Assembly (NCBI GenBank): GCA_963697775.1
Contig: CAVOPH010000003.1
Coordinates: forward strand, 2,234-66,233
Length of the DNA stretch: 64,000 nucleotides
Direction of reading: 5' to 3'
Source of the DNA: an uncultured Acidobacteriota bacterium
GTDB lineage: Bacteria > Acidobacteriota > Vicinamibacteria > Vicinamibacterales > 2-12-FULL-66-21
Shown: positions 21,935 through 50,189 of the stretch, one piece after another
How positions within the stretch are numbered: position 1 is the stretch's first letter
How the letters are laid out: the number at the start of each line of letters is the position of its first letter
Position numbers and translations under genes: made by a program
Notes under the pieces: generated by a model
Told to the model about the DNA's origin: nothing
Database searches by the model: none
The model's input: only the letters and a program-made list of their open reading frames with translations

Positions 21935-24900
21935 CGACGACGCCGAGCTCGTTCAAAGACATCGAACGAAGTTCAACTGGAACACTCGAGGGGACGCTGC
22001 CCGCACCAATGTCCAGCCGCTCCCCATTTGCACCGGTAATCGATCCACCGCCATTCCCGACCAGGGGAACCTCATGGACGGCCTCTTCGGGCGCGCGCAT
22101 CTCGACCGTGATCACCCCTTTCTCGAGGGTCAGCGGCTCGAAGACGAGCGACGGGCTCACTGGGAAGCCGGCCGCCATCACCGGAGAAGGACCGCCGGGT
22201 ATCTGATAGAGGACGAGATCCTGCTCAACCGGCTCGAGGTGCATCTCGGTCTGCGAATAGAACTGGTACGCCTCGGTGATACGCGAGTGCACAACCGTTC
22301 CGCTCGAAACCAAGACACCGGCGCCTGCAACCGTGCCGCGCACCACCGACTTCACGCCGGGCTTGTAGAACAGAACCTTGGGCTGCGGAACGACGAGTCC
22401 GGTCGCCTCGAGAGGAATCAGGAGCGGGGTCACCCCGACCACGAGTTCGCCGGGGACCGGTTGCGGCGGAACGGCCGGCGCAGCATCCGCAACGACCCAG
22501 GCGTACTGACCCGTGCCCGGAATGCTTCCTGTGAGCAGTGCCTTGTCGGATGGGAGCGCGTTCGTGGCGAGCGCTCGCCACGCGCGTGACTGTTCGTCCC
22601 ACTGTACGAACGTCACCAGCCTGCCCGCCTTGAGATTCAACGCGTTCGGTGATGCGAGCGACGCCGGCGTCGCGAACGGGATCCCGTGCGGGCCAATGTC
22701 GATGATGTCTATTGGCGTCCATCCAGGAGGCAGCAGTCCCGGCAGCGATTGACGACTGAGCGGCGTCATCGTCACGTCAGCGCTCGACGCGAGAGCCCCG
22801 GCCGGAATCGTCAGCGTGACGTCGGGTCCGCCAAGGGCCACGTTGCCAAGCGAGGGATCCTCAGCGGCCGAGACTTCCCGCTGCCATGCCTCCAGGAACG
22901 TCGCGCGGTCACCTGTGATCGTTGCACCCGACAGTCCGTCAACATGAGCGCTCGCGGCCGCTGCCGTAATTCGTGCATCGACAACTTCGATGGCGGTATC
23001 CGGCTTGATGACCGCCGGTCTGTTGAGCACCGACCAGCCAGCCTTGGCAATCTGAACGATCGCCGTCCCTTCGGTTCCATGAATGACGTAGCGGCCTCGG
23101 GCATCCGAAAGGGCGGACTGCGAATACGGGACGCCACGTGAATCCGTCCCCACGAGCGATGCCGTCGCGCCCTCGACAGGCAGGCCGCTGTTGTCGTCGT
23201 ACACCTCACCCGTCAGGACGCCTTCGCCGGGTGCGATGACCTGAACGTCCCTGGCGTCGATCGCTTCCAATCCTGCGAAGTCGAGCGCCCGCGCTTCGAC
23301 GTGGAGCCGACTGCCCCCCACCGCGCCAGGCGCGACAGCCACCGTCGTCTGGTACGGCGGATCGATGAGCGTCGCGATGCGCTTCCCATCGACAAAAAAG
23401 CGGACAGACGCGACGCCTCCCAAATCCGACACGGTGGCTGAGACGGGCACCGTCGTGCCCGCGTGAGCCGCGGCAGGAGCCGTCAGGCTGAGCGACGGCG
23501 GAATCGTGTCTGGGGTCTGAACGATCTCGATTGATGCGGTCGCGGTTGCCCGGTTGTTCGATCCATCAACGGCCTGAGCCGAGACCGGCAACATTGAACC
23601 CACGACTGCACTCAGCGGAATGACGTAGGTCGCCTCGTAGGGGGGCGCCGTCAGCGATCCGATGGTGACCGAGTTTGCGCCAAGGATCACAGTTGCGACG
23701 CCCACGTTGTCCGTGGCCGTGGCCACGACCTGGAGCACGGTTCCCGGCGCAGCCTGCGCGGGCGCCTTGACGTTGACGATGGGCTTTTCGGTGTCAGGCT
23801 CGGAGACGATCGTGATGGTCGCCGCCGCGGTTCCGACGTTCCCGGCCGCGTCGCGGGCAGAGGCGCCGACCTTCACCGTAGTTCCTGGAGCGACGAGATC
23901 AGGAACATTAATGATTCGCTGGTATGGTGCGCTCGGCAGTTCGATCGGATCGGTGTCGTTGACGTCGAGCGTCACCGACTGAACGCCGATGTTGTCGGTC
24001 GCCTCGGCCGTCATCGTGACGTGCGCACCGGGCAGCGCTTCTTTGGGTCCGCTGAGCGTCACAACCGGTGGCGCACGATCGGGCGCGGCGGCAATCGTCG
24101 CAGTCGTTGCCGCGGCGTCCGATACGGCGCCGTGCGAGTCGGTCACAACCAGGGTGACGGTGAATACGCCGACGCTCTGGTAGACGTGAAACGGTTTGCG
24201 ATCCGTGCTGGTCGTCTGATCGCCGAACGACCACGCGAAGGTGAGTACGTCATTATCGGGGTCGCTCGAGCCGCTGCCGTCGAAGGTCAGGCCAACACCT
24301 ACATCAGCTGACTGCGCGGGACCAGCCTGCGCGACCGGAGAATGATTCACTGCCGCGACAACCGTGATGGTGACGTCCGCGCTGCTCGAGAGGAGCGAAT
24401 CGCTGGCGGTCAGCCGCAGGACGTAGGTGCCGGGTTGAGTGAATGTCGCGGTCGTGCCGGGTGCACCGGCGCTGCTGAACGTCACCGTCCCCGGACCGCT
24501 GAATTTCGTCCACAAGATCGTCAGCGTTCCCCCAGCCGGCAGGCCGTCGTCGGTTGCGGTCCCGGTCAACGCCGCGGTGTTGGGTAGCGTAATCGTCTGC
24601 GGATCGCCGGCGCCGACGACTGGCTTTTGATTGACCGGTGGAGGCGGAGCGGTGACGGTGACCGACGCGGGCGCGGTCGCGCTGCCGCCGTGGCCGTCGG
24701 TGACGGTCAGCGTCGCGGTGAACGGGCCAGCAGTCGAGTACGCGTGCGTCGGCGAAGCGCCCACCCCCGTTGCACCGTCGCCGAAGTTCCACGTGAACGA
24801 CAGCGTGTCGCCCGCATCGGGATCGGAGCCGCTGCCGCTGAAGGAAATCGCTGCACCGGTCAACCCGGAATACGGACCGCCCGCTGATGCCGTCGGGTTG

Positions 24901-25127
24901 TGATTCGGCGAAGGCGGCGCGGTGACAGTGACCGACGCGGTGGCCGTCGCGCTGCCGCCGTGGCCGTCGGTGACGGTCAACGTCGCGGTAAACGGACCAG
25001 CAGTCGAGTACATGTGCGTCGGCGAAGTGCCCACTCCCGTTGCACCATCGCCGAAGTTCCACGCGATACGACAGCGTGTCGCCAGCATCGGGATCGGAGC
25101 CGCTGCCGCTGAAGGAAATCGCGGCAC
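21627..25127 (-). CDS. Giant gene 2 fragment: PKD domains, Ig-like domains, CarboxypepD_reg-like domain
   Basis: ORF 21627..25127. PKD signature WNFGDGATGVG.SPTH.Y...G.FTATLTVTDGHG. Four Ig-like modules with ATDN(I/V)GV or SDLGGV. GEVYDDNSGLPVEGATASLVGTD...SDARGRYVI. Below about 21935 it turns Arg-rich and the sense continues in ORF 17633..21934. Confidence 0.7.
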   Translation of the reverse strand: MPRFPSAAAAPIPMLATRCRIAWNFGDGATGVGTSPTHMYSTAGPFTATLTVTDGHGGSATATASVTVTAPPSPNHNPTASAGGPYSGLTGAAISFSGSGSDPDAGDTLSFTWNFGDGATGVGASPTHAYSTAGPFTATLTVTDGHGGSATAPASVTVTAPPPPVNQKPVVGAGDPQTITLPNTAALTGTATDDGLPAGGTLTILWTKFSGPGTVTFSSAGAPGTTATFTQPGTYVLRLTASDSLLSSSADVTITVVAAVNHSPVAQAGPAQSADVGVGLTFDGSGSSDPDNDVLTFAWSFGDQTTSTDRKPFHVYQSVGVFTVTLVVTDSHGAVSDAAATTATIAAAPDRAPPVVTLSGPKEALPGAHVTMTAEATDNIGVQSVTLDVNDTDPIELPSAPYQRIINVPDLVAPGTTVKVGASARDAAGNVGTAAATITIVSEPDTEKPIVNVKAPAQAAPGTVLQVVATATDNVGVATVILGANSVTIGSLTAPPYEATYVIPLSAVVGSMLPVSAQAVDGSNNRATATASIEIVQTPDTIPPSLSLTAPAAAHAGTTVPVSATVSDLGGVASVRFFVDGKRIATLIDPPYQTTVAVAPGAVGGSRLHVEARALDFAGLEAIDARDVQVIAPGEGVLTGEVYDDNSGLPVEGATASLVGTDSRGVPYSQSALSDARGRYVIHGTEGTAIVQIAKAGWSVLNRPAVIKPDTAIEVVDARITAAAASAHVDGLSGATITGDRATFLEAWQREVSAAEDPSLGNVALGGPDVTLTIPAGALASSADVTMTPLSRQSLPGLLPPGWTPIDIIDIGPHGIPFATPASLASPNALNLKAGRLVTFVQWDEQSRAWRALATNALPSDKALLTGSIPGTGQYAWVVADAAPAVPPQPVPGELVVGVTPLLIPLEATGLVVPQPKVLFYKPGVKSVVRGTVAGAGVLVSSGTVVHSRITEAYQFYSQTEMHLEPVEQDLVLYQIPGGPSPVMAAGFPVSPSLVFEPLTLEKGVITVEMRAPEEAVHEVPLVGNGGGSITGANGERLDIGAGSVPSSVPVELRSMSLNELGVVVAHWFRLRERDVHFICDRTVSTGDVFHSASRSGDRHRSLPLDPAPGARRTDALRADGARRTDERSAGLHSRARRHGCDVRRDPVAWPLRVPSRHDAARLRGR

Positions 25128-25980
25128 CAGTCAACCCGGAATACGGACCTCCCGCTGATGCCGTCGGGTTGTGATTCGGTGGAGGCGGTGCGGTGACTGG
25201 TGACCGACGCGGTCGCCGTCGCGCTGCCGCCGTGACCGTCGGTGACGGTCAGCGTCGCGGTGAACGGACCCGCCGTCGAGTACGCGTGCGTCGGCGAAGT
25301 GCCCACTCCCGTTGCACCATCGCCGAAGTTCCACGCGAACGACAGCGTGTCGCCAGCATCGGGATCGGAGCCGCTGCCGCTGAAGGAAATCGCGGTACTG
25401 GTCAAGCCGGAATACGGACCACCAGCCGATGCCGTCGGGTTGTGATTCGGTGGAGGCGGGGCGGTGACTGTGACCGATGCCGTGGCCGTTGCGCTACCAC
25501 CGTGACCATCGCTCACAGTGAGCGTCGCGGTGAACGGACCCGCCGTCGAGTACGCGTGCGTCGGCGTTGCGCCGACTCCCGTCGCACCATCGCCGAAGTT
25601 CCATGCGAACGACAGCGTGTCGCCCGCATCGGGATCGGAGCCGCTGCCGCTGAAGGAAATCGCGGCGCCGGTCTGGCCGGAATACGGACCGCCGGCAGAT
25701 GCCGTCGGATTGTGATTCGGTGGAGGCGGTGCAGTGATAGTGACCGCTGCGGTCGCCGTCGCGCTGCCGCCGTGGCCATCGCTCACAGTCAGCGTCGCGG
25801 TGAACGGACCGGCCGTCGCGTACGAGTGAGTCGGCGAAGCCCCGACTCCCGTCCCACCATCGCCGAAGTTCCATGCGAACGACAGCGTGTCGCCAGCATC
25901 GGGGTCCGAGCCGCTGCCGCCGAAAGAAATCGCGGCCGCGGTGAAGCCGGAATATGGACCGCCGGCCGATGCCGTCGGGT
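24628..25980. repeat. Tandem 270-bp DNA repeat (5 units, roughly 90 percent alike by eye) encoding the PKD array
   Basis: The unit boundary word TTGTGATTCGG recurs at 24898, 25169, 25440 and 25710, with variants at 24628 and 25980. Spacings are 271, 271, 270 and 270 nt. The two 271-nt units each carry one extra base relative to their neighbours (GCGATACGACAG vs GCGAACGACAG near 25068; GTGACTGGTGACC vs GTGACTGTGACC near 25198). Confidence 0.8.
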
Positions 25981-26677
25981 TGTGATTGGTGGATCCACCG
26001 CCGGACGTGATCGTGAAAGCGCCTGGAAGGATGGCAATCTGCGCGCTGGTCACCTGCACGGTGCGGACGCTCGCCGCCGTGGTCGCGGGTATGGAAATGT
26101 TCGCGAGCAGCGTCGTGTCGGACTGCACGGTGACCTTGTTGACCGTCACCCCTGTTCCAAATGTGACTTGCGTGTTTCCGGCAACGAAGTGTGTGTTCGC
26201 TGAGCCAGTAATGCGGACGTCCTGATTCACGGCGCCCGCAGGCAAGGAAGCGATCCCAGGCAGCGAGATCGCGATCACATCGAGCGACTTGCCGTCGCTG
26301 AAGCTCCCGGTGGTCACATTTCGGACACGAAGCGCCGTGACTCCAACGGGCAATCCAGCCGGAACCTTGACGGTCAGCCGGCGCGAGCCCGCTGTGGCGT
26401 CAACGGTCGCGATAGCGCTCGGAACAGCAGTAAGTGCGGGGCCACTCGCAGGGATGAAGGAGACTTCGTTCTTGGACGCGGTCGGATCGAAGCCGGTGCC
26501 GACGATGTTGATGGTCGCGAGGGTGGAGGCACCGGTTGGCGTGACCGACGTCAGCAGCCCGGACTGCGCGCTCGAGATCGCCCCAACCATCAGGACGAGC
26601 AGCAGTGCGCCCGCGCGGACGCCGGATCGCCTGGAGGTCAACGAAGCGGCGATTGATACGGTCCAGGGCCGGGGCAC
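24977..26677 (-). CDS. Giant gene 2, N-terminal fragment: signal peptide, two IPT/TIG-like domains, PKD repeats
   Basis: ORF 24977..26677 starts at GTG 26677. An alternative TTG at 26641 overlaps the PEP-CTERM gene stop as TTGA. Signal-like SRRSGVRAGALLLVLMVGAISSAQS. INIVGTGFDPTASKNEVSFIP, then three PKD copies. Sensible only down to about 25198. Confidence 0.7.
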   Translation of the reverse strand: MPRPWTVSIAASLTSRRSGVRAGALLLVLMVGAISSAQSGLLTSVTPTGASTLATINIVGTGFDPTASKNEVSFIPASGPALTAVPSAIATVDATAGSRRLTVKVPAGLPVGVTALRVRNVTTGSFSDGKSLDVIAISLPGIASLPAGAVNQDVRITGSANTHFVAGNTQVTFGTGVTVNKVTVQSDTTLLANISIPATTAASVRTVQVTSAQIAILPGAFTITSGGGSTNHNPTASAGGPYSGFTAAAISFGGSGSDPDAGDTLSFAWNFGDGGTGVGASPTHSYATAGPFTATLTVSDGHGGSATATAAVTITAPPPPNHNPTASAGGPYSGQTGAAISFSGSGSDPDAGDTLSFAWNFGDGATGVGATPTHAYSTAGPFTATLTVSDGHGGSATATASVTVTAPPPPNHNPTASAGGPYSGLTSTAISFSGSGSDPDAGDTLSFAWNFGDGATGVGTSPTHAYSTAGPFTATLTVTDGHGGSATATASVTSHRTASTESQPDGISGRSVFRVDWCRDFLQRQRLRSRCWRHAVVSRGTSAMVQREWALRRRTCTRLLVRLPRR

Positions 26678-27620: not shown

Positions 27621-27650
27621 CTGGAAACTGGAAACTGGAGACTGGTAACT
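27621..27650. repeat. Heptamer tandem array (CTGGAAA/CTGGAGA/CTGGTAA)
   Basis: CTGGAAACTGGAAACTGGAGACTGGTAACTG followed by ATTTTT, immediately 3' of the CHAT gene stop (27656). No inverted partner seen nearby. Confidence 0.75.
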
Positions 27651-27655
27651 GATTT

Positions 27656-30397
27656 TTAAAACGGCTCTCCGATCAGCACGTAGCCGGCCCAGTAGAACGG
27701 GCGCGCATCCAGGCGGACGTTGCCCAGCGGAGTGCGAACCACCATTGAACCGCTCCGAAGCTTTTGCAGCAGATCGAGCTGAGCGCGTCTGAGAGCCGCT
27801 CGTTTGTCGAGCCCCGCAAGCCAGTGCGTGTAGAACCCTTTCATGATCGCGGCGCTCGGTTGATCGGCAACATCCCAGAGCGTCGCTACGACGGTGGGCG
27901 TGCCGGCATAAAACAACGCTCTCGCCATCCCGGAGATCCCGTCGCCCGACGGCTTGCCCGTGGCGGTTCCGCATGCGCTCAACACCACGATCTCTGACGA
28001 GAGAGAGAGCTCGTACACCTCCCGGACCGTGAGGTGGCCATCCGACTCTGGACGGTCGCCGCTCTCGCCGAGCGCCAGGTAGGAATCGAGCGGCTCGTCA
28101 TCCCGAATCACGGCGTGTGTCGCGAAGTGAATGACGCGCTTGTCGGTCAGTTCCCGGCGCACATCCTTCTCGAGCGCCTGGGTCCTCGCGAGCACGCTGG
28201 TTCGGCCGCGGCCGAATACGTCTCTGATTGCAGCGGCTTCTCCGATCGCGGCAGACAGCGATGGAAGCGGCGCCTGGCCGGGCGGCGTGGAGATTGGTGC
28301 GGGATCAGCCACCACGAGAGAACTGCCCGACGAATTCGATCGGGACTGTCGCGCCAGGCGTTCGGTAAACGCAAAAGCGGACGCGGATGGAGCGTAGGCG
28401 ATCGCGTAACGCTCCACCAGGTAGGTTCCAGCCGGGTCCACAAGCGCCGCGAACGACAGGCGAAACAACGGCCCGTGCGGCAGGATCGTCAGGGCGCTCC
28501 CGTCAGGAGGCAGCCACTTCGCTACGGGCCCCACCAGCAACGTGTACAGGCGGCGGAACGCGGTCGCCTCGGACGAGTCCGGCTTGGGGACAGCAGCCTG
28601 CACCATGCGCTCGAGCGTGGCGCGGCTCACCACGATGCGTGCGCTCCGGACGGGGTGCCCTGGTTGGATCACCCACGCAAAGACTTCTTCGTCGTTGACC
28701 CAGTAGGCGACCACGGTGGTGCGGAGCCGGGCTGCCGTGGTCGCGATCTCGTCGGCCGAAGCGGTCTTCGAAGAGGCGTAACTGCTCAGCGTCAAATCGT
28801 CACGACGGGAAGCTGCGACCGGCCTGTTGAGGCCGCCTCGAGTCTCCAACCCGGATGGCGCCGGGTCGAGCGCCGGAAGCAATGAGGACGACGACGCCGG
28901 CGGCGGCGCATCCGGCTTCGGTGGTGACGCGATCAGCGCTTTGCCCGCCAGCAGATCGAGGAACGCGCGGGCGCGCGCCTGTTCGCTGACGATCAGCGCC
29001 TGCTCCGGCTGACCCCGTTGAATCATCAGCGCCAGCGTCAGGCCGTACAGTGACTGATGGACTTCGCTGAACCCTCGCTTCATGAAGTCCAGCGGCACGA
29101 GCCTGGACCTGATCTCTTCGACGCGTCGCACCGCTTCACGGGCATCATCCAGCGCGGCGTCGATTCGGCCGGCCGCGCGATTGATCGAGGCCCGCTGATG
29201 AAACAGATCGACGAGATAGTCGCGGTTGGCGGATCGAAGGCCGTACTCGATCGATCGATCCGCATGCTGCAGCGCCGTGTCGTACTGCTGCTGCTCCAGA
29301 TAATTCATGGCCAGATTGCCATGGCGATAGGCCAGCAGGTACGGATCCGTTTCGCGCGTGATGACATCTTCGAGCAGCCGGATGGCGCCCGGCACATCGC
29401 CACTGGCCGCGTAGGCAGCCGCCAGATTCCCCTGCTGAAAGTTCACGATCCGCTCGGAACCGGTCTTGCGCGCGAGCGCGAGCGCACGTTCGTATGCCAC
29501 GCGCGACTCGGCCGTTCGGCCGAGCAGTCCCAGCGCGATGGCTTTCGAGTTCAGGCTCTGCACGAGGCCTCGAATATCGCCGATCCGTTCCTGGACCTTC
29601 CCGGCCTGGTCGTAGAATTCGAGGGCCCGTTCGGGTTGTCCATGGACCCGATACATCCGCCCGACACTGACGTAGGCGTCAGCCAGGCTGGCAGGCCTAT
29701 CGGCTTCCTTGAATTTGTCGATCGCCAGATTCAAATCCGCAATGGCATCGTCGAATCGTCCGGCCCCGAATGCGTGGTCGGCCCGCAGATGAAGCGCTCG
29801 TGCTTCCAGGCCGGCAGAAGGGATGCGGCGCGCAAGTAGCAACGCTTCGTCGATCAATCGCGCTTCCTCCGGGTCGCCGCTTGGCAGCGCGTAGCATAAG
29901 TTGATGAGCGTCGATGCCCGATCCGCATCGTCGCCAATCTCCGTGAACACGGCCAGAGACGTCTCGAACTGCCGGCGGGCGCCAGGCAGATCGCCCTTTG
30001 CCATGGCGACAAACCCCAGCACGTCCGCGGCATGGGCTTCCTGACGGCGATCGCCCAGGGTCTGCGCCAAGTCACGCGCGCGAACACCCTCGGCCACCGC
30101 GGTGTCGTAGTCGCTGAGGTGGTACGACGCGAGCGCAGAGCCAACCCGCGCCTGCAGTTCGGTCACGCGATCGGCGCTGGCAATGGCCAGCCGAAGAGCC
30201 TGGTCGAAGCACGGCTTCGCTGGACCATTTTGCTCTAACGTCGCAAGGCGCTGGCCTTCTTTGAGGAGATCCGGAACGGACGAGGAGGAACTACAGCTGG
30301 TCGACGACGGATCAGTCGACTGGGCGGCTGGCGCCGCGACGAGAACGCCCGTCCAGAGCACGAGCGTCAGCGAGCATAGGTGTCGTGACCCTGCCAC
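27656..30397 (-). CDS. Exported TPR-repeat CHAT-domain (caspase-fold) protease
   Basis: ORF 27656..30655. The most plausible start is GTG 30397, giving MAGSRHLCSLTLVLWTGVLVAAPAAQS (signal-like). Long TPR-like helical repeat region. C-terminal CHAT-type block with candidate dyad His in VIHFATHAV (codon 28115-28117) and Cys in VVLSACGTA (codon 27971-27973). No frame break. The start is uncertain and overlaps the 3' end of the anti-sigma ORF. Confidence 0.8.
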   Translation of the reverse strand: MAGSRHLCSLTLVLWTGVLVAAPAAQSTDPSSTSCSSSSSVPDLLKEGQRLATLEQNGPAKPCFDQALRLAIASADRVTELQARVGSALASYHLSDYDTAVAEGVRARDLAQTLGDRRQEAHAADVLGFVAMAKGDLPGARRQFETSLAVFTEIGDDADRASTLINLCYALPSGDPEEARLIDEALLLARRIPSAGLEARALHLRADHAFGAGRFDDAIADLNLAIDKFKEADRPASLADAYVSVGRMYRVHGQPERALEFYDQAGKVQERIGDIRGLVQSLNSKAIALGLLGRTAESRVAYERALALARKTGSERIVNFQQGNLAAAYAASGDVPGAIRLLEDVITRETDPYLLAYRHGNLAMNYLEQQQYDTALQHADRSIEYGLRSANRDYLVDLFHQRASINRAAGRIDAALDDAREAVRRVEEIRSRLVPLDFMKRGFSEVHQSLYGLTLALMIQRGQPEQALIVSEQARARAFLDLLAGKALIASPPKPDAPPPASSSSLLPALDPAPSGLETRGGLNRPVAASRRDDLTLSSYASSKTASADEIATTAARLRTTVVAYWVNDEEVFAWVIQPGHPVRSARIVVSRATLERMVQAAVPKPDSSEATAFRRLYTLLVGPVAKWLPPDGSALTILPHGPLFRLSFAALVDPAGTYLVERYAIAYAPSASAFAFTERLARQSRSNSSGSSLVVADPAPISTPPGQAPLPSLSAAIGEAAAIRDVFGRGRTSVLARTQALEKDVRRELTDKRVIHFATHAVIRDDEPLDSYLALGESGDRPESDGHLTVREVYELSLSSEIVVLSACGTATGKPSGDGISGMARALFYAGTPTVVATLWDVADQPSAAIMKGFYTHWLAGLDKRAALRRAQLDLLQKLRSGSMVVRTPLGNVRLDARPFYWAGYVLIGEPF

Positions 30398-31277
30398 TCG
30401 GTAATCTCCAGCCGATCCGCGGCGCAAGGAGAGTACCCAGGGCCGCACACGCTTGTTCTCGTCGCGACTCACCCGTCCCGCAGATCTCGGTGAGTACGAT
30501 CGCGGCCGCATCGCGGCGGCCAACCCGCTCGAGAGCAACGGCAAGATACCACGAGGCATCAAGGCGCAGCCACGTGTTCGCCGTCCCGTCAGTTCGTGCC
30601 CGTTCCAGCGGGGCCACCGCATCTGCGGCTTGCCCGGCCAGCAGGTACGAGACACCGAGGTAGTAGCTCACAAACGGTTCGTTCGGGTGGCTTGACTGGA
30701 GTGCAGCGAGCTTCTGTATAGCCCCGGGATAGTCATCACGCCGGAACGGCGCGAGCGCGCCGCTGAGCGCTGTTGCATACGGGTCAGCCCCTCGACTCCG
30801 CAAGACGAGCGCGCTCGGCGGCAACTCAACTTCGGGCTTCTCCAGCGTGAGCACGAAAGCGGACCCAGCACGCGGGGATGCTCCGACAGGGACGCCGGGT
30901 GCCGAAGGCATGACGGAATCCTGGTGGTCGAACTGCGCCAGCCAACCTGCACCAACTGCGATCGTGATGACCGCTGCGGCGGCAACGGGCCGCCACCACG
31001 CTCGTGACGTTCGTCCGGCGTTCTTCACCCTGGACTGAATCCGCTTCGACTCCTCGACGGTCGGCTCCGAACACTCGGGCGACGCCTGTGCCTCGGCAAG
31101 CATCCGGCAGACGGCGCAATGCTCCATGTGCGAGAGGATTCGTCCCCGTAGCGGTTCCGGCAGCGTCCCCTCCATCGCGGGCAGGAGCGTCTCGGGCGCC
31201 GGACACGACACCGTCTGAGCGCGCTCGAACGCGTCCCTTTCCGAGGGGTCCAAATCAGCTGGCACGGGCCGCATCAT
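30312..31277 (-). CDS. Anti-sigma factor (zf-HC2 N-terminus, one TM span, TPR-like extracytoplasmic domain)
   Basis: ATG 31277 overlaps the sigma gene stop (ATGA). H-x3-C-x2-C motif LSHMEHCAVCRM at about 31101-31136. Hydrophobic span WWRPVAAAAVITIAVGAGWLAQF. C-terminal helical repeats (YYLGVSYLLAGQAADAVAPLERA...). Confidence 0.75.
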   Translation of the reverse strand: MMRPVPADLDPSERDAFERAQTVSCPAPETLLPAMEGTLPEPLRGRILSHMEHCAVCRMLAEAQASPECSEPTVEESKRIQSRVKNAGRTSRAWWRPVAAAAVITIAVGAGWLAQFDHQDSVMPSAPGVPVGASPRAGSAFVLTLEKPEVELPPSALVLRSRGADPYATALSGALAPFRRDDYPGAIQKLAALQSSHPNEPFVSYYLGVSYLLAGQAADAVAPLERARTDGTANTWLRLDASWYLAVALERVGRRDAAAIVLTEICGTGESRREQACAALGTLLAPRIGWRLPSGRVTTPMLADARALDGRSRRGASRPVD

Positions 31278-34338: not shown

Positions 34339-34434
34339 CAGTTACCAGTTTCCAGTTTCCAGTTACCAGTAGGCTCTCTGCACCGTTTTCTCAACTGGAA
34401 ACTGGGCACTGAACTGAAACTGAAACTGGAAACT
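34339..34434. repeat. Inverted pair of heptamer arrays (CCAGTTT/CCAGTTA vs AACTGGA/AACTGAA)
   Basis: Left arm 34339-34370: CAGTTACCAGTTTCCAGTTTCCAGTTACCAGT. Right arm 34393-34434: CAACTGGAAACTGGGCACTGAACTGAAACTGAAACTGGAAACT. Fills the etfA / ETF-QO spacer. Confidence 0.85.
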
Positions 34435-35392
34435 ATTTTTTCAACTCCGCTATCAGTGCAGGAACCACTTCGAACAGATCTCCGGCGATGCCGTAGTCGG
34501 CGATCTCGAAAATCGGCGCTTCGGGGTCCTTGTTGATTGCGACGATCGTTCGCGATCCCTTCATCCCGACCAGGTGCTGAATCGCCCCGGAGATACCGAG
34601 CGCCACGTAAAGCTTCGGCGCGACGGTCTGCCCAGAACTGCCGATCTGACGGTCCATGGGCAACCATCCGGCGTCGCAGATGGGCCGCGACGCGGCGAGC
34701 TCTGCGCCGAGCGCCTTGGCTAGCTCCTCGGCAATCTTGACGTGCTCCTGTCCCTTGATTCCGCGGCCGACCGAGACAATCCGCTCGGCCTGCGACAGAT
34801 CGACGGCTTGCTTCGCCTCCTGAAAGGGTGCCTCGGGCTTCTGACGAATCGCTGCCGCATCGACGGCAACGCTCACCTTGCGAATCGGAGCCGGAGAGGC
34901 GCCGCGCTTCGCGGCGTCGGCGCGAAAGGCGCCGATCTGAATCGTCACCAGATGGGGTGAAGGGCCGAGCGCTTCCACGTCGGCATTCAGTTTTCCCTGA
35001 AACACTGGACGGACGTAAACAGTGCTGTCGCCGGACTTCCTGATCGCGGTCACGTCCGTGACCAGCGACCGGCCGATGCGGGTCGCAAGGGCGGGCGCGA
35101 AATCACGGGTCTGGTACGTGTGCGAAAAGAAGACGGACGAAGGCTTCTCCTGGTCGATGAAAGACGTCAAGGCAAGAACGTAGCCGTCTGCGGTGTACTC
35201 CGCGAGCGCGGTAGCTTCGAGAACAATGACCTCTGCTACCGCCGCCGCAGCGATTTCTGTCGCCGCAGCGTCTGCACCCGACCCGAGCAGCGCAATCTTG
35301 ACGGGCTCCTCACTCTGCTGAGCGGCCGCGACGGCTTCCCACGTCGCGCGATTCAATTTCCCACCACGCTGTTCGCCAACGACAACAGGCAT
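34433..35392 (-). CDS. etfA: Electron transfer flavoprotein alpha subunit
   Basis: 319 aa. C-terminal FAD-binding signature ...IVSVGRGIKGQEH...ASRPICDAGWLPMDRQIGSSGQTVAPKLYVALGISGAIQHLVGM. Confidence 0.9.
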   Translation of the reverse strand: MPVVVGEQRGGKLNRATWEAVAAAQQSEEPVKIALLGSGADAAATEIAAAAVAEVIVLEATALAEYTADGYVLALTSFIDQEKPSSVFFSHTYQTRDFAPALATRIGRSLVTDVTAIRKSGDSTVYVRPVFQGKLNADVEALGPSPHLVTIQIGAFRADAAKRGASPAPIRKVSVAVDAAAIRQKPEAPFQEAKQAVDLSQAERIVSVGRGIKGQEHVKIAEELAKALGAELAASRPICDAGWLPMDRQIGSSGQTVAPKLYVALGISGAIQHLVGMKGSRTIVAINKDPEAPIFEIADYGIAGDLFEVVPALIAELKK

Positions 35393-35426
35393 TGTTAGAT
35401 CACCCTCGCTTCGTCTCGCAGCCGTT

Positions 35427-36155
35427 TCACCAGATCTTTGGCGGCGTCTGCAGGGGATCCGGGATCATCTGTGTCTGCTTGGATTTTTCAGGGAAGTGCA
35501 CACCGAGAATGCGGCTGGTGGATTCGGTCGCTCCCGCCGGTGTGACCTTTCGAATCTCTTTCTTCTTCGCCGCCATGATCCCCTTCAGCGTCGCGTAGCG
35601 AAGCTGATTGATGCCGCTCTGGATGGTGAGGAGGGCAGGCATCGGCAGCGAGATCCACTGGAACCAGCCACCCTCGAGTTCCCGCTTCACGCGAAGACCT
35701 GATTCAGAAGCCTGGACCTCCATGATGATCGTCGCATGAGGCATCGCCAGCTTTTCGGCGAGGACGACGCCGACCTGGCCAAAGCCCTGGTCGTCGGACT
35801 GAAGGCCGGTCAGCACGAGATCGAATTTTTCTTCGCGGACGGCGGTCGCAATCGCCTCGGCGACGCTGACCGCGTCAGCGGTCGCGAGCGCGTCCGATTC
35901 GATGTGAATCGCACGGTCCGCGCCACGAGCGAGCGCCTCACGAATCACCTGCGACGCGCGGGCCGGACCTGCCGAGACGACGACGACCTCGCCGGTGTGC
36001 TTTTCTTTCAGCCGCAGCGCTTCCTCGAGCGCGTAGGCATCCGGCTCGTTGAGCTCGAAACTCGCATCCTGATCGCGAATCCAGGTCTTCGCATCGTTGA
36101 TGCGGAGCTGCCACTCCCTGGTGACAACCTGTTTGATGCAAACGGCGATTTTCAT
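35427..36155 (-). CDS. etfB: Electron transfer flavoprotein beta subunit
   Basis: MKIAVCIKQVV... start at ATG 36155. The 12 upstream codons of ORF 35427..36191 lie in the heptamer array. Typical EtfB length of about 242 aa. Confidence 0.9.
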   Translation of the reverse strand: MKIAVCIKQVVTREWQLRINDAKTWIRDQDASFELNEPDAYALEEALRLKEKHTGEVVVVSAGPARASQVIREALARGADRAIHIESDALATADAVSVAEAIATAVREEKFDLVLTGLQSDDQGFGQVGVVLAEKLAMPHATIIMEVQASESGLRVKRELEGGWFQWISLPMPALLTIQSGINQLRYATLKGIMAAKKKEIRKVTPAGATESTSRILGVHFPEKSKQTQMIPDPLQTPPKIW

Positions 36156-36158
36156 TGT

Positions 36159-36313
36159 AGCTTCCAGCTGCCAGCTACCAGCTTCCAGCATGAGGAGCTT
36201 CCAGCTACCAGCTTGAAATCAAGTTCGACCGCGCGTGAAAAGCGCCACTCAAAGCACCCCGGTCCTCGCAAACTTGAACTGAGCGGGAAGCTGGAAGCAG
36301 GAAGCTGGAAGCT
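36159..36313. repeat. Inverted heptamer arrays (CCAGCTN / NAGCTGG)
   Basis: Left arm 36159-36215: AGCTTCCAGCTGCCAGCTACCAGCTTCCAGC...AGCTTCCAGCTACCAGCTTG. Right arm 36286-36313: GGGAAGCTGGAAGCAGGAAGCTGGAAGCT. Spacer between the fabF stop and the etfB start. Confidence 0.85.
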
Positions 36314-37553
36314 ATTCATCAAACTTTTTGAACAACAGCGCCCCGTTCGTGCCGCCGAAGCCAAAAGAATTCGACAGGGCGTACTGGATGGCTGCCGGCC
36401 GTTTGACGTTCGGCACGTAATCGAGATCGCACTCCGGGTCGGGCGCCTCGAGATTAATCGTCGGCGGGATCATCTGATGGCGGATCGCCAGGACGGTGAT
36501 GCCCGCCTCCAGGCCGCCGGCGGCGCCGAGCAGATGACCGGTCATCGACTTGGTGGACGAGATCGCCAGCGTGCGGGCGTGATCGCCGAAGAGCCGTTTG
36601 ATCGCGAGCGTTTCGAGCTTGTCGTTATACGGGGTGGAGGTGCCATGGGCGTTGATGTAATCGACCTTGGCGGGCGCGACCCCGGCCTGCTTGATCGCCG
36701 CCTGCATGACGCGCATGCCGCCGTCGCCGTCTTCCGAGGGGGCGGTGATGTGGTACGCGTCCGCGCTCATGCCGTAGCCGACGAGCTCGGCGTAGATTTG
36801 CGCGCCGCGCCGGCGGGCGAACTCGAGTTCTTCGAGAATGATGACCCCCGCGCCCTCGCCCATCACAAAGCCGTCGCGGTCCTTGTCGAACGGGCGGCTC
36901 GCTCGCTCGGGATCGTCGTTACGCGTGGACAACGCGCGCATGGCGGCAAAGCCGCCGACACCCATCGGCGTGATCGCCGCCTCGGAGCCGCCGGCAATCA
37001 TGACGTCGGCATCGTTACGGCGGATGATCTCGAACGCATCGCCGATCGCGTGAGCGGAGGCTGAACAGGCCGTGCACGTCGCGGAATTGGGCCCCTTGGC
37101 CCCGAAGCGAATGGAAACCTGGCCGGCAGCGAGATTGATGATGGCGGCTGGAATGAAGAAGGGAGAAATCCGCCGCGGACCGCCTTCGAGCAGCGCCTTG
37201 TGCTCGCGCTCGATCGTGCTGAACCCGCCGATCCCCGACGCGATGAACACGCCCGTCCGTGTGGCCCATTCCGGGCTCACCTTCAGCTTCGCATCGGCCA
37301 TGGCGAAATCCGCCGCGGCGATCGCCAGCTGGATGAAGACGTCCATCTTCTTGACGTCTTTCTTGTCCACGAACTGCAGTGGATCGAACTGCTTGACCTC
37401 GCCGGCAATTCGCGCGGAGAACTGCGTCGCGTCAAACCGCGTAATCGGTCCGATCCCGCTCTGCCCGGCGCAGAGTGCTTCCCAGTTCGTTTGGGTCCCT
37501 ATGCCGAGTGGCGACACGAGGCCGACACCCGTCACGACGACTCGCCTGCTCAA
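36312..37553 (-). CDS. fabF: 3-oxoacyl-ACP synthase II
   Basis: [15 protein letters not shown]..., active-site region [15 protein letters not shown]-terminal [11 protein letters not shown]. Start taken as TTG 37553 (GGGGAGG 5 nt upstream). The ORF track extends to 37574. Confidence 0.9.
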
Positions 37554-38608: not shown

Positions 38609-38614
38609 ATTCGC

Positions 38615-38653
38615 AGCTTCCAGCTTCCGGCTACCAGCTTCCAGCTCTCAGCC
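38615..38653. repeat. Heptamer array (CCAGCTT/CCGGCTA/CCAGCTC)
   Basis: AGCTTCCAGCTTCCGGCTACCAGCTTCCAGCTCTCAGCC. It begins 7 nt upstream of the fabG ATG and contains the fabD stop codon. The last fabD residues LRAGSW are encoded by the array. Confidence 0.8.
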
Positions 38654-40587: not shown

Positions 40588-40732
40588 AGGTTCTGCGAGG
40601 TTCTACAGGGTTCTACCAGGTTCTGCGGGGTTCGTTCAGGTTCTGCCGGGTTCCGCGCGCCGAACCTTCTAGAACCGGAACGAACCTTGTAGAACCAAGT
40701 AGAACCCAGTAGAACCTTGTAGAACCTGGTTT
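40588..40732. repeat. Long imperfect palindrome built from about 6+7 decamer units with a GGTTC / GAACC core
   Basis: Left arm: GGTTCTGCGA GGTTCTACAG GGTTCTACCA GGTTCTGCGG GGTTCGTTCA GGTTCTGCCG GGTTCC. Centre: GCGCGCC. Right arm: GAACCTTCTA GAACCGGAAC GAACCTTGTA GAACCAAGTA GAACCCAGTA GAACCTTGTA GAACC. Fills the plsX / rpmF spacer. Confidence 0.85.
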
Positions 40733-41450: not shown

Positions 41451-41588
41451 GGGTCTCTACGCGCCCACCCCGGATGGGCGCGAACCTCCGATTATACCTT
41501 AGAAAACCCTCGTTCCTGGCGGCTCCCGGCTTCCGGCTCCTGGCCTGCCCTGAGCGAGCGTACGGTTCGCGCGAGTCGAAGGGATCAC

Positions 41589-41620
41589 TTTTTACTTTTA
41601 ACTTTTAACTTTTAACTTTC
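41589..41620. repeat. Heptamer array (TTTTAAC)n
   Basis: TTTTACTTTTAACTTTTAACTTTTAACTTTC abutting the stop of the dGTPase-like gene. A second short array, GGCTCCCGGCTTCCGGCTCCTGGCC, lies at about 41521-41545. Confidence 0.8.
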
Positions 41621-42679
41621 TCACCGTTCCTCCCCTCCGCCCACCCACGATTTCGGGATGAACAGCTGCTCGTAGAGGCTGACGGCGTAGCGGTCGGTCA
41701 TGCCGGCCAGGAAGTCGCGGGCCGCGGCGTCGAGGCCCTCTTCGTCAATCGTCCGCGTGTCCAGGAACTCGGCCGGACGCTCGCGCACCTTCTCCCACAA
41801 CCCGCCGAGGATGCCGCCGGCCTTCTTGAATTCGGCGGTCGCCACCTCGTTTTCGTAGACCGCCTCGAACAGGAAACTGCGCAGCCCGACGGTCGCATCG
41901 AGAATGCGATCGCTCATTCGAATCTCGCCAAGACCGCCTTCGAGACTCTGGACCACGACATCGGTGACCATGCGGCCAATGCGCTCGGAAGAACTGGCGC
42001 CGAGGACCTCCACGCGATTCGACGGCAGATCCTCTTCCTTCAGCAGACCCGCCCTCACCGCATCGTCGATGTCGTGATTCACGTAGGCAATGATGTCGGC
42101 GACTCGTGCAATCTGCCCTTCGATCGTGCTGGCGCGATGCTCCGGATCCGCGCCGACAGGCATGCCGCTCTTTCCCTTCGAATGGCGGGCAATCCCGTCG
42201 CGGACCTCCCATGTCAGGTTCAGACCGGCGCGATCCTTCTCGAGCACGTCGACGATCCGCAGGCTCTGTTCGTAATGATTGAACCCGCCCGGGATGAGAT
42301 CGCTGAGCACGCGTTCCCCGGCGTGACCAAACGGCGTGTGACCCAGATCGTGCCCAAGCGCGATCGCCTCGGTCAGCTCTTCGTTCAAGCGCAGCACCTT
42401 CGCGATGCTCCGCGCGATTTGCGACACTTCGAGCGTGTGGGTCAATCGGGTCCGATAGTGATCGCCGGTCGGCGCAAAGAACACCTGGGTCTTGTGCTTC
42501 AACCGTCGAAAGGCCTTGCAGTGGATGACGCGATCGCGATCGCGCTGAAAGGCCGGGCGGATCGGATCCTCGGGCTCGGGTCGCAGCCGGCCCCGCGTAT
42601 CGCCGCTCTTGGCCGCCTGCGGCGCGAGGATTTGACGTTCGCGCTCCTCGAGTTGTTCACGAATGTTAACCGGCGACAT
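41621..42679 (-). CDS. Deoxyguanosinetriphosphate triphosphohydrolase-like HD-domain protein
   Basis: 352 aa. FRRLKHKTQVF...THTLEVSQIARSIA...LGHDLGHTPFGHAGE. Confidence 0.85.
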   Translation of the reverse strand: MSPVNIREQLEERERQILAPQAAKSGDTRGRLRPEPEDPIRPAFQRDRDRVIHCKAFRRLKHKTQVFFAPTGDHYRTRLTHTLEVSQIARSIAKVLRLNEELTEAIALGHDLGHTPFGHAGERVLSDLIPGGFNHYEQSLRIVDVLEKDRAGLNLTWEVRDGIARHSKGKSGMPVGADPEHRASTIEGQIARVADIIAYVNHDIDDAVRAGLLKEEDLPSNRVEVLGASSSERIGRMVTDVVVQSLEGGLGEIRMSDRILDATVGLRSFLFEAVYENEVATAEFKKAGGILGGLWEKVRERPAEFLDTRTIDEEGLDAAARDFLAGMTDRYAVSLYEQLFIPKSWVGGGEER

Positions 42680-42727: not shown

Positions 42728-42947
42728 AAACAGGAGAAATGAGAAAGGAGAACATTACAAGTGGTTTCATAACCTGCTCCGGTTCGCACTAGCTCTCACG
42801 CCAAGATCGCACAGCGTTTTCGCAGCGCGCGCCGAAAACCATCTCGCGCAGAGATCGCTGAGGACGCGGAGAAGAAAAGGTGCTGCGGGCTCTGCGTCCT
42901 CTGCGCGAGCCTGACTATTGATTCTCCTTTCTCCCTTCTCCTGTTTG
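42728..42947. repeat. Inverted pair of heptamer arrays (AGGAGAA / TTCTCCT) flanking about 170 bp
   Basis: 42728-42753: AAACAGGAGAAATGAGAAAGGAGAAC. 42923-42947: TTCTCCTTTCTCCCTTCTCCTGTTT. The second arm encodes the last residues (EQTGEGRKE) of the deoB ORF. Confidence 0.75.
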
Positions 42948-46399: not shown

Positions 46400-46625
46400 A
46401 GGTTCGACGAGGTTCTACGGGGTCCTGCTGGGTTCTACAAGGTTCGTTCGGGGTCCTACAAAGTTCACAGACGGTGCCACGCGCAAACTCAGCACTGCCG
46501 GCAGCTGGTAAAACTTGCAGGACAGCGGAACCGGAACGAACCCATCGGAGTCGGAACGAACCCAGCAGAACCCCGAACGAACCCAGCAGAACCCTGTAGA
46601 ACCTTGTAGAACCTGGCAGAACCTT
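46400..46625. repeat. Second decamer-unit palindrome with a GGTTC / GAACC core
   Basis: Left arm at about 46400-46470: AGGTTCGACG AGGTTCTACG GGGTCCTGCT GGGTTCTACA AGGTTCGTTC GGGGTCCTAC. Right arm at about 46535-46625: GGAACGAACCCATCGGAGTCGGAACGAACCCAGCAGAACCCCGAACGAACCCAGCAGAACCCTGTAGAACCTTGTAGAACCTGGCAGAACC. TonB / ubiE spacer. Confidence 0.8.
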
Positions 46626-48855: not shown

Positions 48856-48930
48856 AAATGCTGAATGTTGAGTGCTGCTGAATGAAAACTCGTTCCTCAT
48901 TCAGCAATCAGCATTCAGCAATCAGCATTT
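48856..48930. repeat. Hairpin of heptamer words (GCTGAAT / ATTCAGC)
   Basis: AAATGCTGAATGTTGAGTGCTGCTGAATGA - loop - CATTCAGCAATCAGCATTCAGCAATCAGCATTT, between the amidohydrolase stop and the prenyltransferase start. Confidence 0.8.
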
Positions 48931-50189
48931 CATTCGGTGTCGAGCCATCTGATCGCATCAGGCTCGATACCGCCCACCAGGTATTGTTCCACATCATCGA
49001 TGCCGCGAGGGACTCGGACGGCAATCAGCTCGGCGCGCTTCCCCTTTTCAATCGTGCCGAATTCATCGGCGAAACCAAGCGCCTGCGCGCCGGCAATTGT
49101 GGCGCTTTCGAGAAGCCGTGCGGCCGGAACGTGTGGCGCAAGACGGTGCATGTGCGCGACTTCCGTAAACAGGTTCAAATCGTCGACGCTGGCGAGGCTG
49201 TCGGTGCCGATGGCCACGCGCACGCCCGATTCGTAGAAATCCTGGATCGGTGGCGTTCCCGCGCCGGTCCAGCGGTTACTGCGCGGGCAGGCCACCAGCG
49301 TCGCCCGCGCGACGGCGAGCCGCGCGAGTTCCGGTTGCTGCAGCTGCGTGCCATGGACAGCCAGAAGCCGATCGTTCACGAGTCCAAGCCGTTCGAGATA
49401 TTCCACGGGACCGCAGCCCGGGGGTCGCCATTGTTCGTTCCACGCACCGATCCGGCCCAGTAGCTCACGCCAGGCGCCCGTTCCATTCTGGAGAAACTCC
49501 ATCTCCTCCCCCGACTCCCCGAGATGGACGCTGACGGGGTAATCCCCGGCAGCCTTTCCGATGGCGTGAAAGAGTTCTGGCGAAACGGAAAACGGCGCGT
49601 GCGGCACGATCGATCGACGCCAGGCATCCCGCGGGGTCAAGCGGTCGAGGGACGTCTGCGCCGCTTCGACCTGACGCTGCGGCGAAGGCGAGTTGAAGCC
49701 GAGGAGCTCGAGAAAGATGGCGCCCCCGAGGCGGCTGTCGGAGACGAGGTCGTACGCAGCAAGGGTATTCGTCACGTCGCCGACCAGCGCCGTCCCCGCC
49801 GCACGCGACTCGCGGATGGCAGCGGCGATCGGCGCGGGCGGATCGTTCCCCTGCTCGCGTCGAAGAGCCATGAGCCTCGACGCCCACACCGGCATTGAGT
49901 CTGAGGGCGGAATCCGGTTGCGCATCCACGACAGCTCGAGGTGCGTGTGCGCGTTGACCAGGCCCGGAAGAATCGCGACGTCGCCGAGATCGATGGTTTC
50001 GATGTGCGTGTCGGACTCGGATTCGAACGACCGAGCTGCGCCGTCAGCTGCATCTGTTGCGATCAGGCCGCGCCCATCGTCGAAGGCCGCCGACACTGCC
50101 ACAACACGCGCGTCACGCGTGAGTACACCCCCGTTTCGAATGGGCGGGCCTGAGATCGGCAGAACCCAGGCGGCGCGGTAGAGGATCAC
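48930..50189 (-). CDS. Amidohydrolase-superfamily deaminase (candidate aminofutalosine deaminase)
   Basis: GTG 50189 overlaps the upstream stop (GTGA). VILYRAAWVLPISGPPIRNGGVL...LPGLVNAHTHLELSWM (metal-binding HxH). The function is inferred from its position next to mqnA and the MqnC/E gene. Confidence 0.7.
   Translation of the reverse strand: MILYRAAWVLPISGPPIRNGGVLTRDARVVAVSAAFDDGRGLIATDAADGAARSFESESDTHIETIDLGDVAILPGLVNAHTHLELSWMRNRIPPSDSMPVWASRLMALRREQGNDPPAPIAAAIRESRAAGTALVGDVTNTLAAYDLVSDSRLGGAIFLELLGFNSPSPQRQVEAAQTSLDRLTPRDAWRRSIVPHAPFSVSPELFHAIGKAAGDYPVSVHLGESGEEMEFLQNGTGAWRELLGRIGAWNEQWRPPGCGPVEYLERLGLVNDRLLAVHGTQLQQPELARLAVARATLVACPRSNRWTGAGTPPIQDFYESGVRVAIGTDSLASVDDLNLFTEVAHMHRLAPHVPAARLLESATIAGAQALGFADEFGTIEKGKRAELIAVRVPRGIDDVEQYLVGGIEPDAIRWLDTE

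Follow-up and report, generated by a model that had tools for sequence, protein, structure and literature searches.

Paired tandem heptamer arrays in the gene spacers of an uncultured Acidobacteriota bacterium and their association with PF05635 and PF13366 genes

The spacers between genes of an uncultured Acidobacteriota bacterium (Vicinamibacteria; Vicinamibacterales; 2-12-FULL-66-21) carry tandem arrays of seven-nucleotide words. In this study, we analysed these arrays in a stretch of 64,000 nucleotides (contig CAVOPH010000003.1, positions 2,234 to 66,233), referred to as the window, in its source assembly (GCA_963697775.1; 5.46 Mb, 64% GC, 17 contigs, 67% complete), and in a comparison of 26 species genomes of the genus, in which the flanking genes are about 75-85% identical. 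Intergenic heptamer arrays have been noted in bacteria since 1990, as the short tandemly repeated repetitive (STRR) sequences, and were flagged in 2007 as over-represented in many bacteria. To our knowledge, no mechanism or function has been established for bacterial heptamer tandem repeats. An earlier description of the window, made from its letters alone and called here the sequence-only reading, had presented the arrays as a STRR-like family of mostly inverted arms.

Pfam identified HD, YceD, PlsX, FabD, FabG, AcpP, FabF, EtfB, EtfA, and ETF-QO in the window, all on the minus strand. The earlier statement that arrays occur even between genes that look co-transcribed was therefore borne out. 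The best relatives of fabF were found in metagenome-assembled genomes (MAGs) of Vicinamibacteria and Acidobacteriota, at 79-80% identity. Gene coordinates were taken from a rough caller based on open reading frames (ORFs) and codon scores, which gives reliable stops but unreliable starts.

Period-7 arrays were called with Tandem Repeats Finder (TRF) in the window and the whole genome, and the window loci were additionally read directly from the sequence. As shown in Table 1, every heptamer locus named in the sequence-only reading was present, and two period-10 hairpins of like design were added. Inverted pairs were found at most loci, as had been claimed, but lone arms stood at 1-29, 27621-27651, 38614-38653, and 41587-41619, each adjoining a stop codon. 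The two arms of a locus generally shared one word, except that the AGCTNCC array at 54877-54909 faces CGAACCG. The inverted partner claimed within 34339-34434 exists in a degenerate form with a period of 6-7. Measured against dinucleotide shuffles, the window hairpins had folding z-scores between -3.5 and -9.6, in agreement with the proposed folding. The loop of the hairpin at 42732-42942 holds a nested period-9 inverted pair, CGCAGAGNN (CGCGCAGAGATCGC ... CTCTGCGTCCTCTGCGCGAG, 42830-42905), and this period-9 word also flanks a PF13366 gene elsewhere in the assembly (C6:134454-134903; C numbers denote its contigs). A search against Rfam gave no family match anywhere within the window.

Table 1. 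Tandem arrays and hairpins in the window (nt, window positions; REP, repetitive extragenic palindromic)
Positions	Feature	TRF period-7 rows	Arms, loop and fold	Gene context
2-26	Lone arm (ATTCAGC)x3.6	2-26	Minus-strand reading TAG-GGA-(AATGCTG)n	Directly past stop codon (30-32) of minus-strand gene 30-1403
27621-27651	Lone arm (CTGGAAA)x4.4	27621-27651		4 nt from TAA stop (27656-27658) of minus-strand gene 27656-30655
34339-34434	Hairpin	34339-34370; 34408-34434	Arms 34339-34370 (CCAGTTW) and 34395-34434 (AAACTGG, degenerate); RNA fold -37.8 kcal/mol, z -3.5	Fills EtfA to ETF-QO spacer; outer arm overlaps etfA TAG stop (34433-34435)
36159-36313	Hairpin	36159-36214; 36282-36313	Arms 36159-36214 and 36282-36313 (CCAGCTN / AGCTGGA); loop 67 nt; z -4.0	Fills FabF to EtfB spacer, from fabF TAG stop (36312-36314) to 3 nt before etfB ATG (36155)
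38614-38653	Lone array (AGCTTCC-type)	38614-38646		FabD to FabG spacer; first unit contains likely fabD TGA stop
40588-40727	Period-10 hairpin		GGTTCTNNNG x7 / GAACCNNNNN x6.6; loop 4 nt; -87 kcal/mol, z -9.6	Upstream of plsX
41587-41619	Lone arm (TTTTAAC)x4.7	41587-41619	Minus-strand reading TGA-G-(AAAGTTA)n	1 nt past stop of HD-domain gene 41621-42679
42732-42942	Three-unit arms AGGAGAA / TTCTCCT	42732-42752; 42922-42942	Arms as in TRF rows; conserved gaaaac/gtttgc flanks; loop 170 nt	
46400-46623	Second period-10 hairpin		Arms 46400-46445 and 46554-46623; loop about 110 nt	
48856-48930	Hairpin (AATGCTG)n / (CATTCAG/CAATCAG)n	48901-48927	Loop 13 nt; -44.7 kcal/mol, z -9.3	
54877-55011	Two arms of different words	54877-54909	Arm (AGCTNCC)x4.7 at 54877-54909; GC-rich REP-like palindrome ending CTAC; arm CGAACCG x3.6 at 54987-55011	
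57390-57463	Hairpin TAA-ACA-(ATGCTGA)n ... (CATTCAG)n-CTA	57390-57411; 57431-57463	z -6.3	Between convergent genes; stop codons abut both arms
59643-59797	Hairpin (AGTTTCC)x4.7 / (ACTGGNA)x4	59643-59675	Loop 95 nt	Co-directional spacer downstream of gene 59802-62654

Genome-wide, period 7 was by far the commonest tandem period, well beyond chance, and its strong arrays were mostly intergenic. TRF returned 1,295 rows for period 7, 317 for period 6, and 411 for period 8. For strong arrays, defined by a score of at least 40, the corresponding numbers were 709, 10, and 96, and 81% of the 709 were intergenic against a non-coding share of about 21% of the genome as estimated with the rough gene caller. 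A second, strict detector found 228 arrays of period 7 compared with 6 of period 6 and 12 of period 8. After merging, 1,248 period-7 arrays remained, which together cover 37.5 kb. Their mean GC content was 51% compared with 64% for the genome, so that the remark that the words are AT-richer than their surroundings held for the population. The vocabulary was limited to GCTGAWT (280 arrays), CCAGNTT (about 160), AAAAGTT (about 117), CGCGGTT (70), CCGGGAT (68), AAAGGAG (about 67), GATCAGT (35), and others. Among 428 pairs of neighbouring arrays within 400 nt, with a median loop of 26 nt, 225 were same-word inverted, 27 same-word direct, and 176 of different words, which shows that the pairing of arms is real. 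These results confirm that the arrays are a real, abundant, and structured feature of the genome. The population comprises about 1,250 period-7 arrays, with at least 225 clear hairpins, and relatives of period 8-10. At C1:123000-138000, CCAGTTT-type hairpins also stand between successive genes of what appears, judged from sequence alone, to be the ribosomal-protein (S10/spc) operon.

The anatomy of the arms was regular. A unit has about five conserved and one or two variable positions, and a typical arm consists of five cores of 4-5 nt at 7-nt spacing, about 32 nt in all. Arm length was not geometrically distributed and peaked sharply at 32 nt. Both arm ends had a preferred phase, as in AATG(CTGAATG)4, (AAAGTTA)4AAAGT, and (CAGTTTC)4CAGT, each of which amounts to five cores. 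This size was found for the GCTGAWT, AAAAGTT, CCAGNTT, CGCGGTT, and GATTGTT families; arms of GATCAGT were 24 nt long (20 of 35), and those of AAAGGAG had three units in 19-21 nt. Polarity was fixed in each family, with the 5' arm reading TGCTGAW in 94 of 98 pairs, AAAAGTT in 25 of 25, CCAGTTT in 17 of 19, and AAAGGAG in 10 of 10. The arms were 87% Watson-Crick complementary, and TAG...CTA often, not always, extended the palindrome. The loops were unrelated between copies, and some hold a separate GC-rich stem followed by a T-run. At the genus loci described below the stop-proximal arm was constant in length and the distal arm variable; this asymmetry was not significant genome-wide in the source assembly.

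The arrays were closely tied to the stop codon of the upstream gene. They start -1 to +12 nt from it, and 381 of the 984 arrays lying within 300 nt of a stop begin no more than 12 nt past it; in co-directional spacers the median distance between stop and array was 4 nt. Some genes terminate at a TGA supplied by the array. The word of the 5' arm was in the sense of the gene in 290 of 324 arrays following a stop. Stop codons beside arrays were TAG in 37-54% and TAA in 21-41%, compared with 23% and 14% genome-wide. When spacers of at least 30 nt were considered, a period-7 array was present most often in convergent ones (30%), less often in co-directional ones (19%), and least often in divergent ones (13%), and 66 of 220 pairs lay between convergent genes. 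Gene callers should be used with caution here, as ORFs run into the arrays.

The comparison with relatives that the sequence-only reading had proposed showed that orthologous spacers in the assemblies of at least eight other species also carry arrays. Therefore, the arrays cannot be put down to assembly error. Hairpins stood in the fabF-etfB and etfA-QO spacers of most species, usually extending from a TAG stop to a few bases before the next start. Five of the nine relatives compared, with the window counted among the five, had a complete fabF-etfB hairpin (L082, L084, L086, L087, and the window; L numbers denote loci). In these the hairpin began at TAG and the 5' arm was exactly four units plus CTC, whereas the 3' arm differed across species, with 4 to about 20 units. 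Depending on the species, the word of the spacer was CTTCCAG, CTGTCAG/CTCTCAG, or CTGCCCG, and the opposite arm was always complementary. At a third spacer, GCTGAAT changed to GGTGAAT, with the complement in the other arm. Some species had one-armed versions and others empty spacers, which measured 3 nt (TAG CCC ATTG) in one and 12 nt in another.

The word subtype was also shared between loci. Both fabF-region spacers of one genome had the same subtype, and it was the dominant subtype of that genome. With at most one mismatch, (CTTCCAG)3 occurred 0-167 times per genome (167 in G012, 163 in G003, and 33 in the source genome; G numbers denote genomes), and (CTCTCAG)3 occurred 0-120 times and was missing from 12 genomes including the source genome. 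Controls with reversed words gave 0 matches across the 26 genomes. Since the subtype of a spacer is shared across loci and equals the dominant subtype of the genome, the spacer words evolve in concert across loci and not by independent drift. The same design, with unrelated words or with period 8, was found in an Omnitrophica MAG and in Acidobacteriota of greater distance, including at the fabF-etfB spacer. In other species a REP-type palindrome of the form GTAG...CTAC holds the spacer of the heptamer hairpin. Such GC-rich palindromes were observed at 54910-54940 in the window and at L083, L090 (the fabF-etfB spacer), and L204, sometimes beside a leftover arm. REP-type palindromes and heptamer hairpins appear to compete for the same spacers.

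Some copies of the paired arrays enclose a small gene. PF05635 is a ring-forming four-helix-bundle family known as the '23S rRNA intervening-sequence protein', and PF13366 is a GxxExxY, PD-(D/E)xK-like protein, presumably a nuclease to judge from the name of its fold family. The source genome has three PF05635 genes, all outside the window, and four PF13366 genes, and all seven were bracketed by inverted tandem arrays. Among 4,371 control genes, the 99th percentile of a bracketing score was lower than the value for six of the seven; the result for the seventh was an artefact of its ORF bounds. For PF05635, 62 of 70 loci in the genus were bracketed, and for PF13366, 25 of 30 (87 of 100 together), compared with about 1% of other genes. 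The PF05635 arms used AGCTTCC/AGCTGGA (C1:142560-142917), which is the word of the window hairpin at 36159-36313, a period-10 GGTTCT, which is the word of 40588-40727, or TCGCGGT; the copy that shares its word with 40588-40727 is at C12:160236-160670. The PF13366 arms used AAGGAGA with gaaaac/gttttc flanks as in the window at 42732-42942 (C12:135252-135659), or words of period 8, 9, or 10. The word families of the cassettes also occur without a gene, and three of them have copies in the window. Most PF13366 arms had a GGAG core and about three units of 7-9 nt, and most PF05635 arms had 4-5 or more units. These results indicate that the same arrays exist with and without a small gene between them.

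The arms of the cassettes matched the word subtype of their own genome: in G016 the GCTTCCCG arms resembled the fabF spacers, and in G013 the CTNTCAG arms resembled the spacers. PF05635 protein clades matched arm words. Genomes in which the syntenic cassette has AGCTTCC arms contained 33-115 AGCTTCC arrays, compared with 0-85 in those with another word (Mann-Whitney p 0.004, with kin that are not independent). In 50 other genomes, arrays at the fabF locus were found in 10 of 30 with PF05635 and 1 of 20 without it (p = 0.03, confounded by phylogeny). Kinship confounds all such cross-genome associations.

We also found that single cassettes had changed in different ways. The PF05635 copy at C16:92912-93334 (TCGCGGT/CGAACCG arms) has an in-frame TGA, and the PF13366 copy at C15:186031-186426 is without a start codon. 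Cassette genes decay while the arms persist. In a PF13366 cassette at C5:380699-381154, expansion of the right arm (period 10, TCTGTGTTNN) has produced 11.7 copies of a 37-nt higher-order repeat. Ordinary genes, too, are bracketed by inverted same-word arms, at C5:424847-425398 (183 aa), C12:60464-61105 (213 aa), and C7:533829-534068 (79 aa); the first is putatively DinB/DUF1572-like and the last putatively purS. Arms can therefore span a whole gene that is neither PF05635 nor PF13366.

The window contains two longer tandem repeats. A 270-bp unit is repeated five times at 24636-25993 with 90% identity, within the long minus-strand ORFs 21627-25127 and 24977-26677. A repeat-domain protein is the probable product, and a frameshift or faulty assembly of the repeat may explain why there are two ORFs. 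Three copies of a 131-bp unit, 98% identical, occupy 51397-51793; they cover the end of ORF 50186-51634 together with the gap ahead of 51800-52585, and are unrelated to the heptamer families.

We give about an even chance (roughly 0.5) to the explanation that the arrays are a REP-like population of hairpins under concerted turnover, tied to the PF05635 and PF13366 small proteins. In this explanation, gene-bearing copies and gene-less hairpins would form one system, comparable to RAYT/REP or Ssn/NTS. The small protein would have its own arm array as its recognition target and would drive or guide the copying and homogenisation of arrays. When transcribed, the stems of about 30 bp are probably substrates of RNase III, by analogy with the stem of the Coxiella 23S intervening sequence, and in operons they could act as intercistronic processing or stability sites and not as terminators. 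We infer both the protein-repeat link and any function. A more specific form, which we hold to be doubtful, would make the arrays recognition arrays for master-copy proteins, the five cores matching the PF05635 pentamer, with these proteins copying or homogenising the gene-less hairpins. The PF05635 ring might then wrap single-stranded nucleic acid as the TRAP ring does on GAG repeats, and the three-unit arms would belong to the nuclease-like PF13366 protein. This form would account for the STRR-type repeats of many phyla and for the origin of ORF-bearing rRNA intervening sequences.

Several results weigh against a small-protein system. The PF05635 cassettes are syntenic across the genus, in three shared contexts, and are long established, with arms that drift where they stand. 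Agreement of protein clades with arm words was rejected as proof of specificity, because for syntenic cassettes co-inheritance is sufficient. The largest families, GCTGAWT and AAAAGTT, had no gene-bearing copy in this 67%-complete assembly, although CAGCAAT arms enclose a PF05635 gene of a relative (L102). The expectation of one cassette word for each abundant family held in part, as G010 and G014 are rich in CTCTCAG and no cassette of that word was detected in them. No PF05635 or PF13366 remnants were found in gene-less loops beyond artefacts of array translation. The array termini had no consistent flanks that would mark a target-site duplication or a TA target. Neither movement nor target duplication nor enzyme activity was observed. 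The mismatches within the arms showed no wobble bias on the sense strand (G.U 100 vs A.C 94), and thus no sign of selection on RNA structure.

Plain microsatellites would leave the small proteins without a part. Heptamers would then arise by polymerase slippage, as in Mrazek-type repeats, and their partners by chance or local inverted duplication, with no trans factor or function. The spread of the fabF-etfB 3' arm between 4 and about 20 units in different species, the 37-mer array in one cassette arm, and arm mismatches that look neutral are what slippage would leave behind. Even so, slippage does not lead one to expect non-geometric lengths with family-specific modes (32, 24, and 19-21 nt), a fixed phase at both arm ends, a fixed polarity per family, a limited vocabulary common to hundreds of loci, 225 inverted against 27 direct pairs, or word subtypes coordinated across loci within a genome, and we regard it as quite unlikely. 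Alternatively, the arrays could be bound as double-stranded DNA by a nucleoid-associated or global regulator, the protein bridging arrays and the small genes being passengers. The conserved core of about 5 nt with 1-2 variable linker positions is what repeated contact with a protein would lead one to expect; the discrete number of cores and the fixed convergent orientation also fit, and the lack of an RNA-specific wobble bias fits a role at the DNA level. This is the published interpretation in Geobacter, where IHF or HU was proposed (PMC2700814). We consider it unlikely here, as the arrays lie at the 3' ends of genes and inside operons and not at promoters, with divergent spacers occupied least, as at least ten unrelated words would require at least ten specificities, and as binding site by site does not require the complementary co-variation of arms.

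The strong folds would fit RNA hairpins selected for gene expression, with no link to mobile or protein-guided copying. The hairpins might protect mRNA 3' ends as REPs do, or couple translation, the purine-rich 3' arm (CTGGAAG, GGGAAG) masking the ribosome-binding site until a ribosome terminating at the stop melts the 5' arm. In many species the fabF-etfB and etfA-QO hairpins begin exactly at the stop codon and leave only 3-10 nt ahead of the following start, and they are kept across the genus at these spacers; in E. coli, half of the REPs are said by Liang and colleagues (2015) to lie within 15 nt of stops. On the other side, the large AAAAGTT and GCTGAWT families lack an arm resembling a Shine-Dalgarno sequence, the polarity of AAAGGAG is reversed, nearly a third of the pairs lie between convergent genes, the sense strand shows no G.U excess, and empty or half sites stand beside the same genes in some species. 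Selection for expression is therefore improbable as the general explanation. Translational coupling was rejected as a general role, since it fits CCAGCTT-type hairpins only. Rho-independent terminators or attenuators, a role implied by the earlier description, would suit hairpins that sit just past stops and are most frequent in convergent spacers, and some AAAAGTT 3' arms are T-rich. T-runs were found at only 38 of 444 arm flanks, and the arrays are thus not canonical terminators. In addition, the stems have 51% GC in a 64% GC genome, they sit inside co-transcribed fatty-acid, ETF, and (apparently) ribosomal-protein runs, and some loops contain separate terminators with a GC-rich stem and T-run. 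A terminator role is very unlikely.

If the small proteins and the arms do form a system as in the more specific form above, it would be a previously unrecognised one of the REP/RAYT or Ssn/NTS kind. A causal link would turn an old descriptive curiosity into a testable protein-repeat system, and would bear on the evolution and processing of operon spacers in Acidobacteriota, a dominant and poorly studied soil phylum. If the link is not causal, the arrays are still a useful marker of rapid spacer turnover. In either case the genus offers a dense and structured example, with discrete arm sizes, fixed polarity, abutment to stops, concerted change of both arms, and association with small genes.

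Among known systems, we compared the arrays with REP elements and their RAYT genes. According to Bertels and colleagues, the RAYT gene is reportedly single-copy and vertically inherited. REP/BIME/REPIN elements consist of hundreds of extragenic palindromic units, mostly in inverted doublets downstream of genes and between convergent or co-directional ones, with several families per genome (PMC3733652). Their cognate gene encodes a Y1 transposase and is flanked by its own repeats, so that REP/RAYT, like Ssn/NTS below, is a precedent for a small gene with the repeat it acts on at its flanks. The arrays share with them the extragenic inverted doublets at the 3' ends of genes, the hundreds of copies, and the several families. 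They differ in that a REP unit is an imperfect palindrome tagged with GTAG or CGTC, whereas the arms here are tandem arrays with no internal palindrome or tag. A RAYT as cognate enzyme was considered and rejected, as the sole Y1_Tnp gene (PF01797, C3:461271-461603, L091) is flanked on both sides by a different, classical palindrome, GGTGGCTGGCACC... (GGTGGCTGGCACCTTTCC..GGAAAGTGCCAGCCACC). Flanked by its own palindrome, Y1_Tnp belongs to a separate REP/RAYT system that coexists with the heptamer hairpins. The arrays also do not qualify as miniature inverted-repeat transposable elements, because their loops are unrelated, consistent flanking duplications are lacking, and no transposase was found within a copy, the enclosed genes being PF05635 and PF13366.

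The 23S intervening sequence of Coxiella burnetii contains a PF05635 (S23p) ORF, has a terminal stem of about 28 bp that is cut by RNase III, and carries GACAGAT tandem heptamers that vary between strains (Warrier et al. 2016, PMC4990558). A Xanthomonas homologue of PF05635 forms a homopentameric ring, with five chains in PDB 2gsc (PMC4990558). The cassettes resemble this element in that a PF05635 gene is enclosed by inverted arms, in three of three cases here and in most loci of the genus. The Coxiella element is a single copy in helix 45 of the 23S rRNA, whereas the cassettes and their gene-less counterparts lie between protein-coding genes in hundreds of copies. The Ssn nucleases, which act site-specifically on single-stranded DNA, combine a small nuclease gene with hundreds of short NTS repeats that the nuclease recognises and that surround genes (Chenal et al. 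2025, PMC11893778). Unlike the system proposed here, Ssn/NTS has a GIY-YIG protein and a repeat other than a tandem heptamer array.

The STRR words CCCCAGT, TTGGTCA, and CAACAGT were reportedly described by Mazel and colleagues in 1990 from heterocystous and filamentous cyanobacteria. The label STRR-like given in the sequence-only reading is apt for the design of dispersed intergenic heptamer tandem arrays, but the words and the host group differ from those of cyanobacterial STRR. The words here are GCTGAWT, AAAAGTT, CCAGNTT, CGCGGTT, and others, and the relatives are Acidobacteriota, so that membership of STRR in the strict sense does not apply; by our own comparison, some STRR and TAACTGA-group words share a CAGT/ACTG core with words here. 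TAACTGA repeats are dispersed in intergenic regions of Beggiatoaceae, cyanobacteria, and Bacteroidetes, and occur also in ribosomal-protein operons (PMC4679880). They differ from the arrays here in being nearly all direct (1 inverted in 170) and in standing just upstream of start codons (PMC4679880).

The arrays had been thought undescribed in GC-rich genomes of this type. This view is contradicted by paired heptamer arrays published for Xanthomonas (PMC4692102) and Geobacter metallireducens (PMC2700814). In the GC-rich genomes of Xanthomonas, hundreds of GGGAATC arrays are intergenic, have mostly four units, and form 70-75 convergent inverted pairs (Rehm et al. 2015, PMC4692102). Of the two neighbouring ORFs the upstream one is the closer, few arrays separate divergent genes, and closely related species differ in array length (PMC4692102). 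The mode of 32 nt, the 225 inverted pairs, and the median of 4 nt from the stop are alike here. The Xanthomonas arrays consist of a single G-rich word that was studied as a G-quadruplex, and the paper (PMC4692102) names no gene family; here at least ten mostly non-G-rich words have arms that abut stops. The main words here are without G-tracts, and only the CCGGGAT family (68 arrays) resembles GGGAATC.

A full-text literature search found no description of such arrays in Acidobacteriota. In Geobacter metallireducens, pairs on opposite strands at variable distance contain 3-5 tandem units of 7-9 nt, including (MTYCTGA)x5, and occur between genes of operons such as proBA (Aklujkar et al. 2009, PMC2700814). 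The (MTYCTGA)x5 array is close to TGCTGAW here. The Geobacter arrays number only tens of copies and were interpreted, without a test, as IHF/HU 'global regulator binding sites' (PMC2700814). These comparisons demonstrate that the arrays, in a phylum for which they were not yet in print, are STRR-like and are the same kind of element as the paired heptamer arrays of Xanthomonas and Geobacter.

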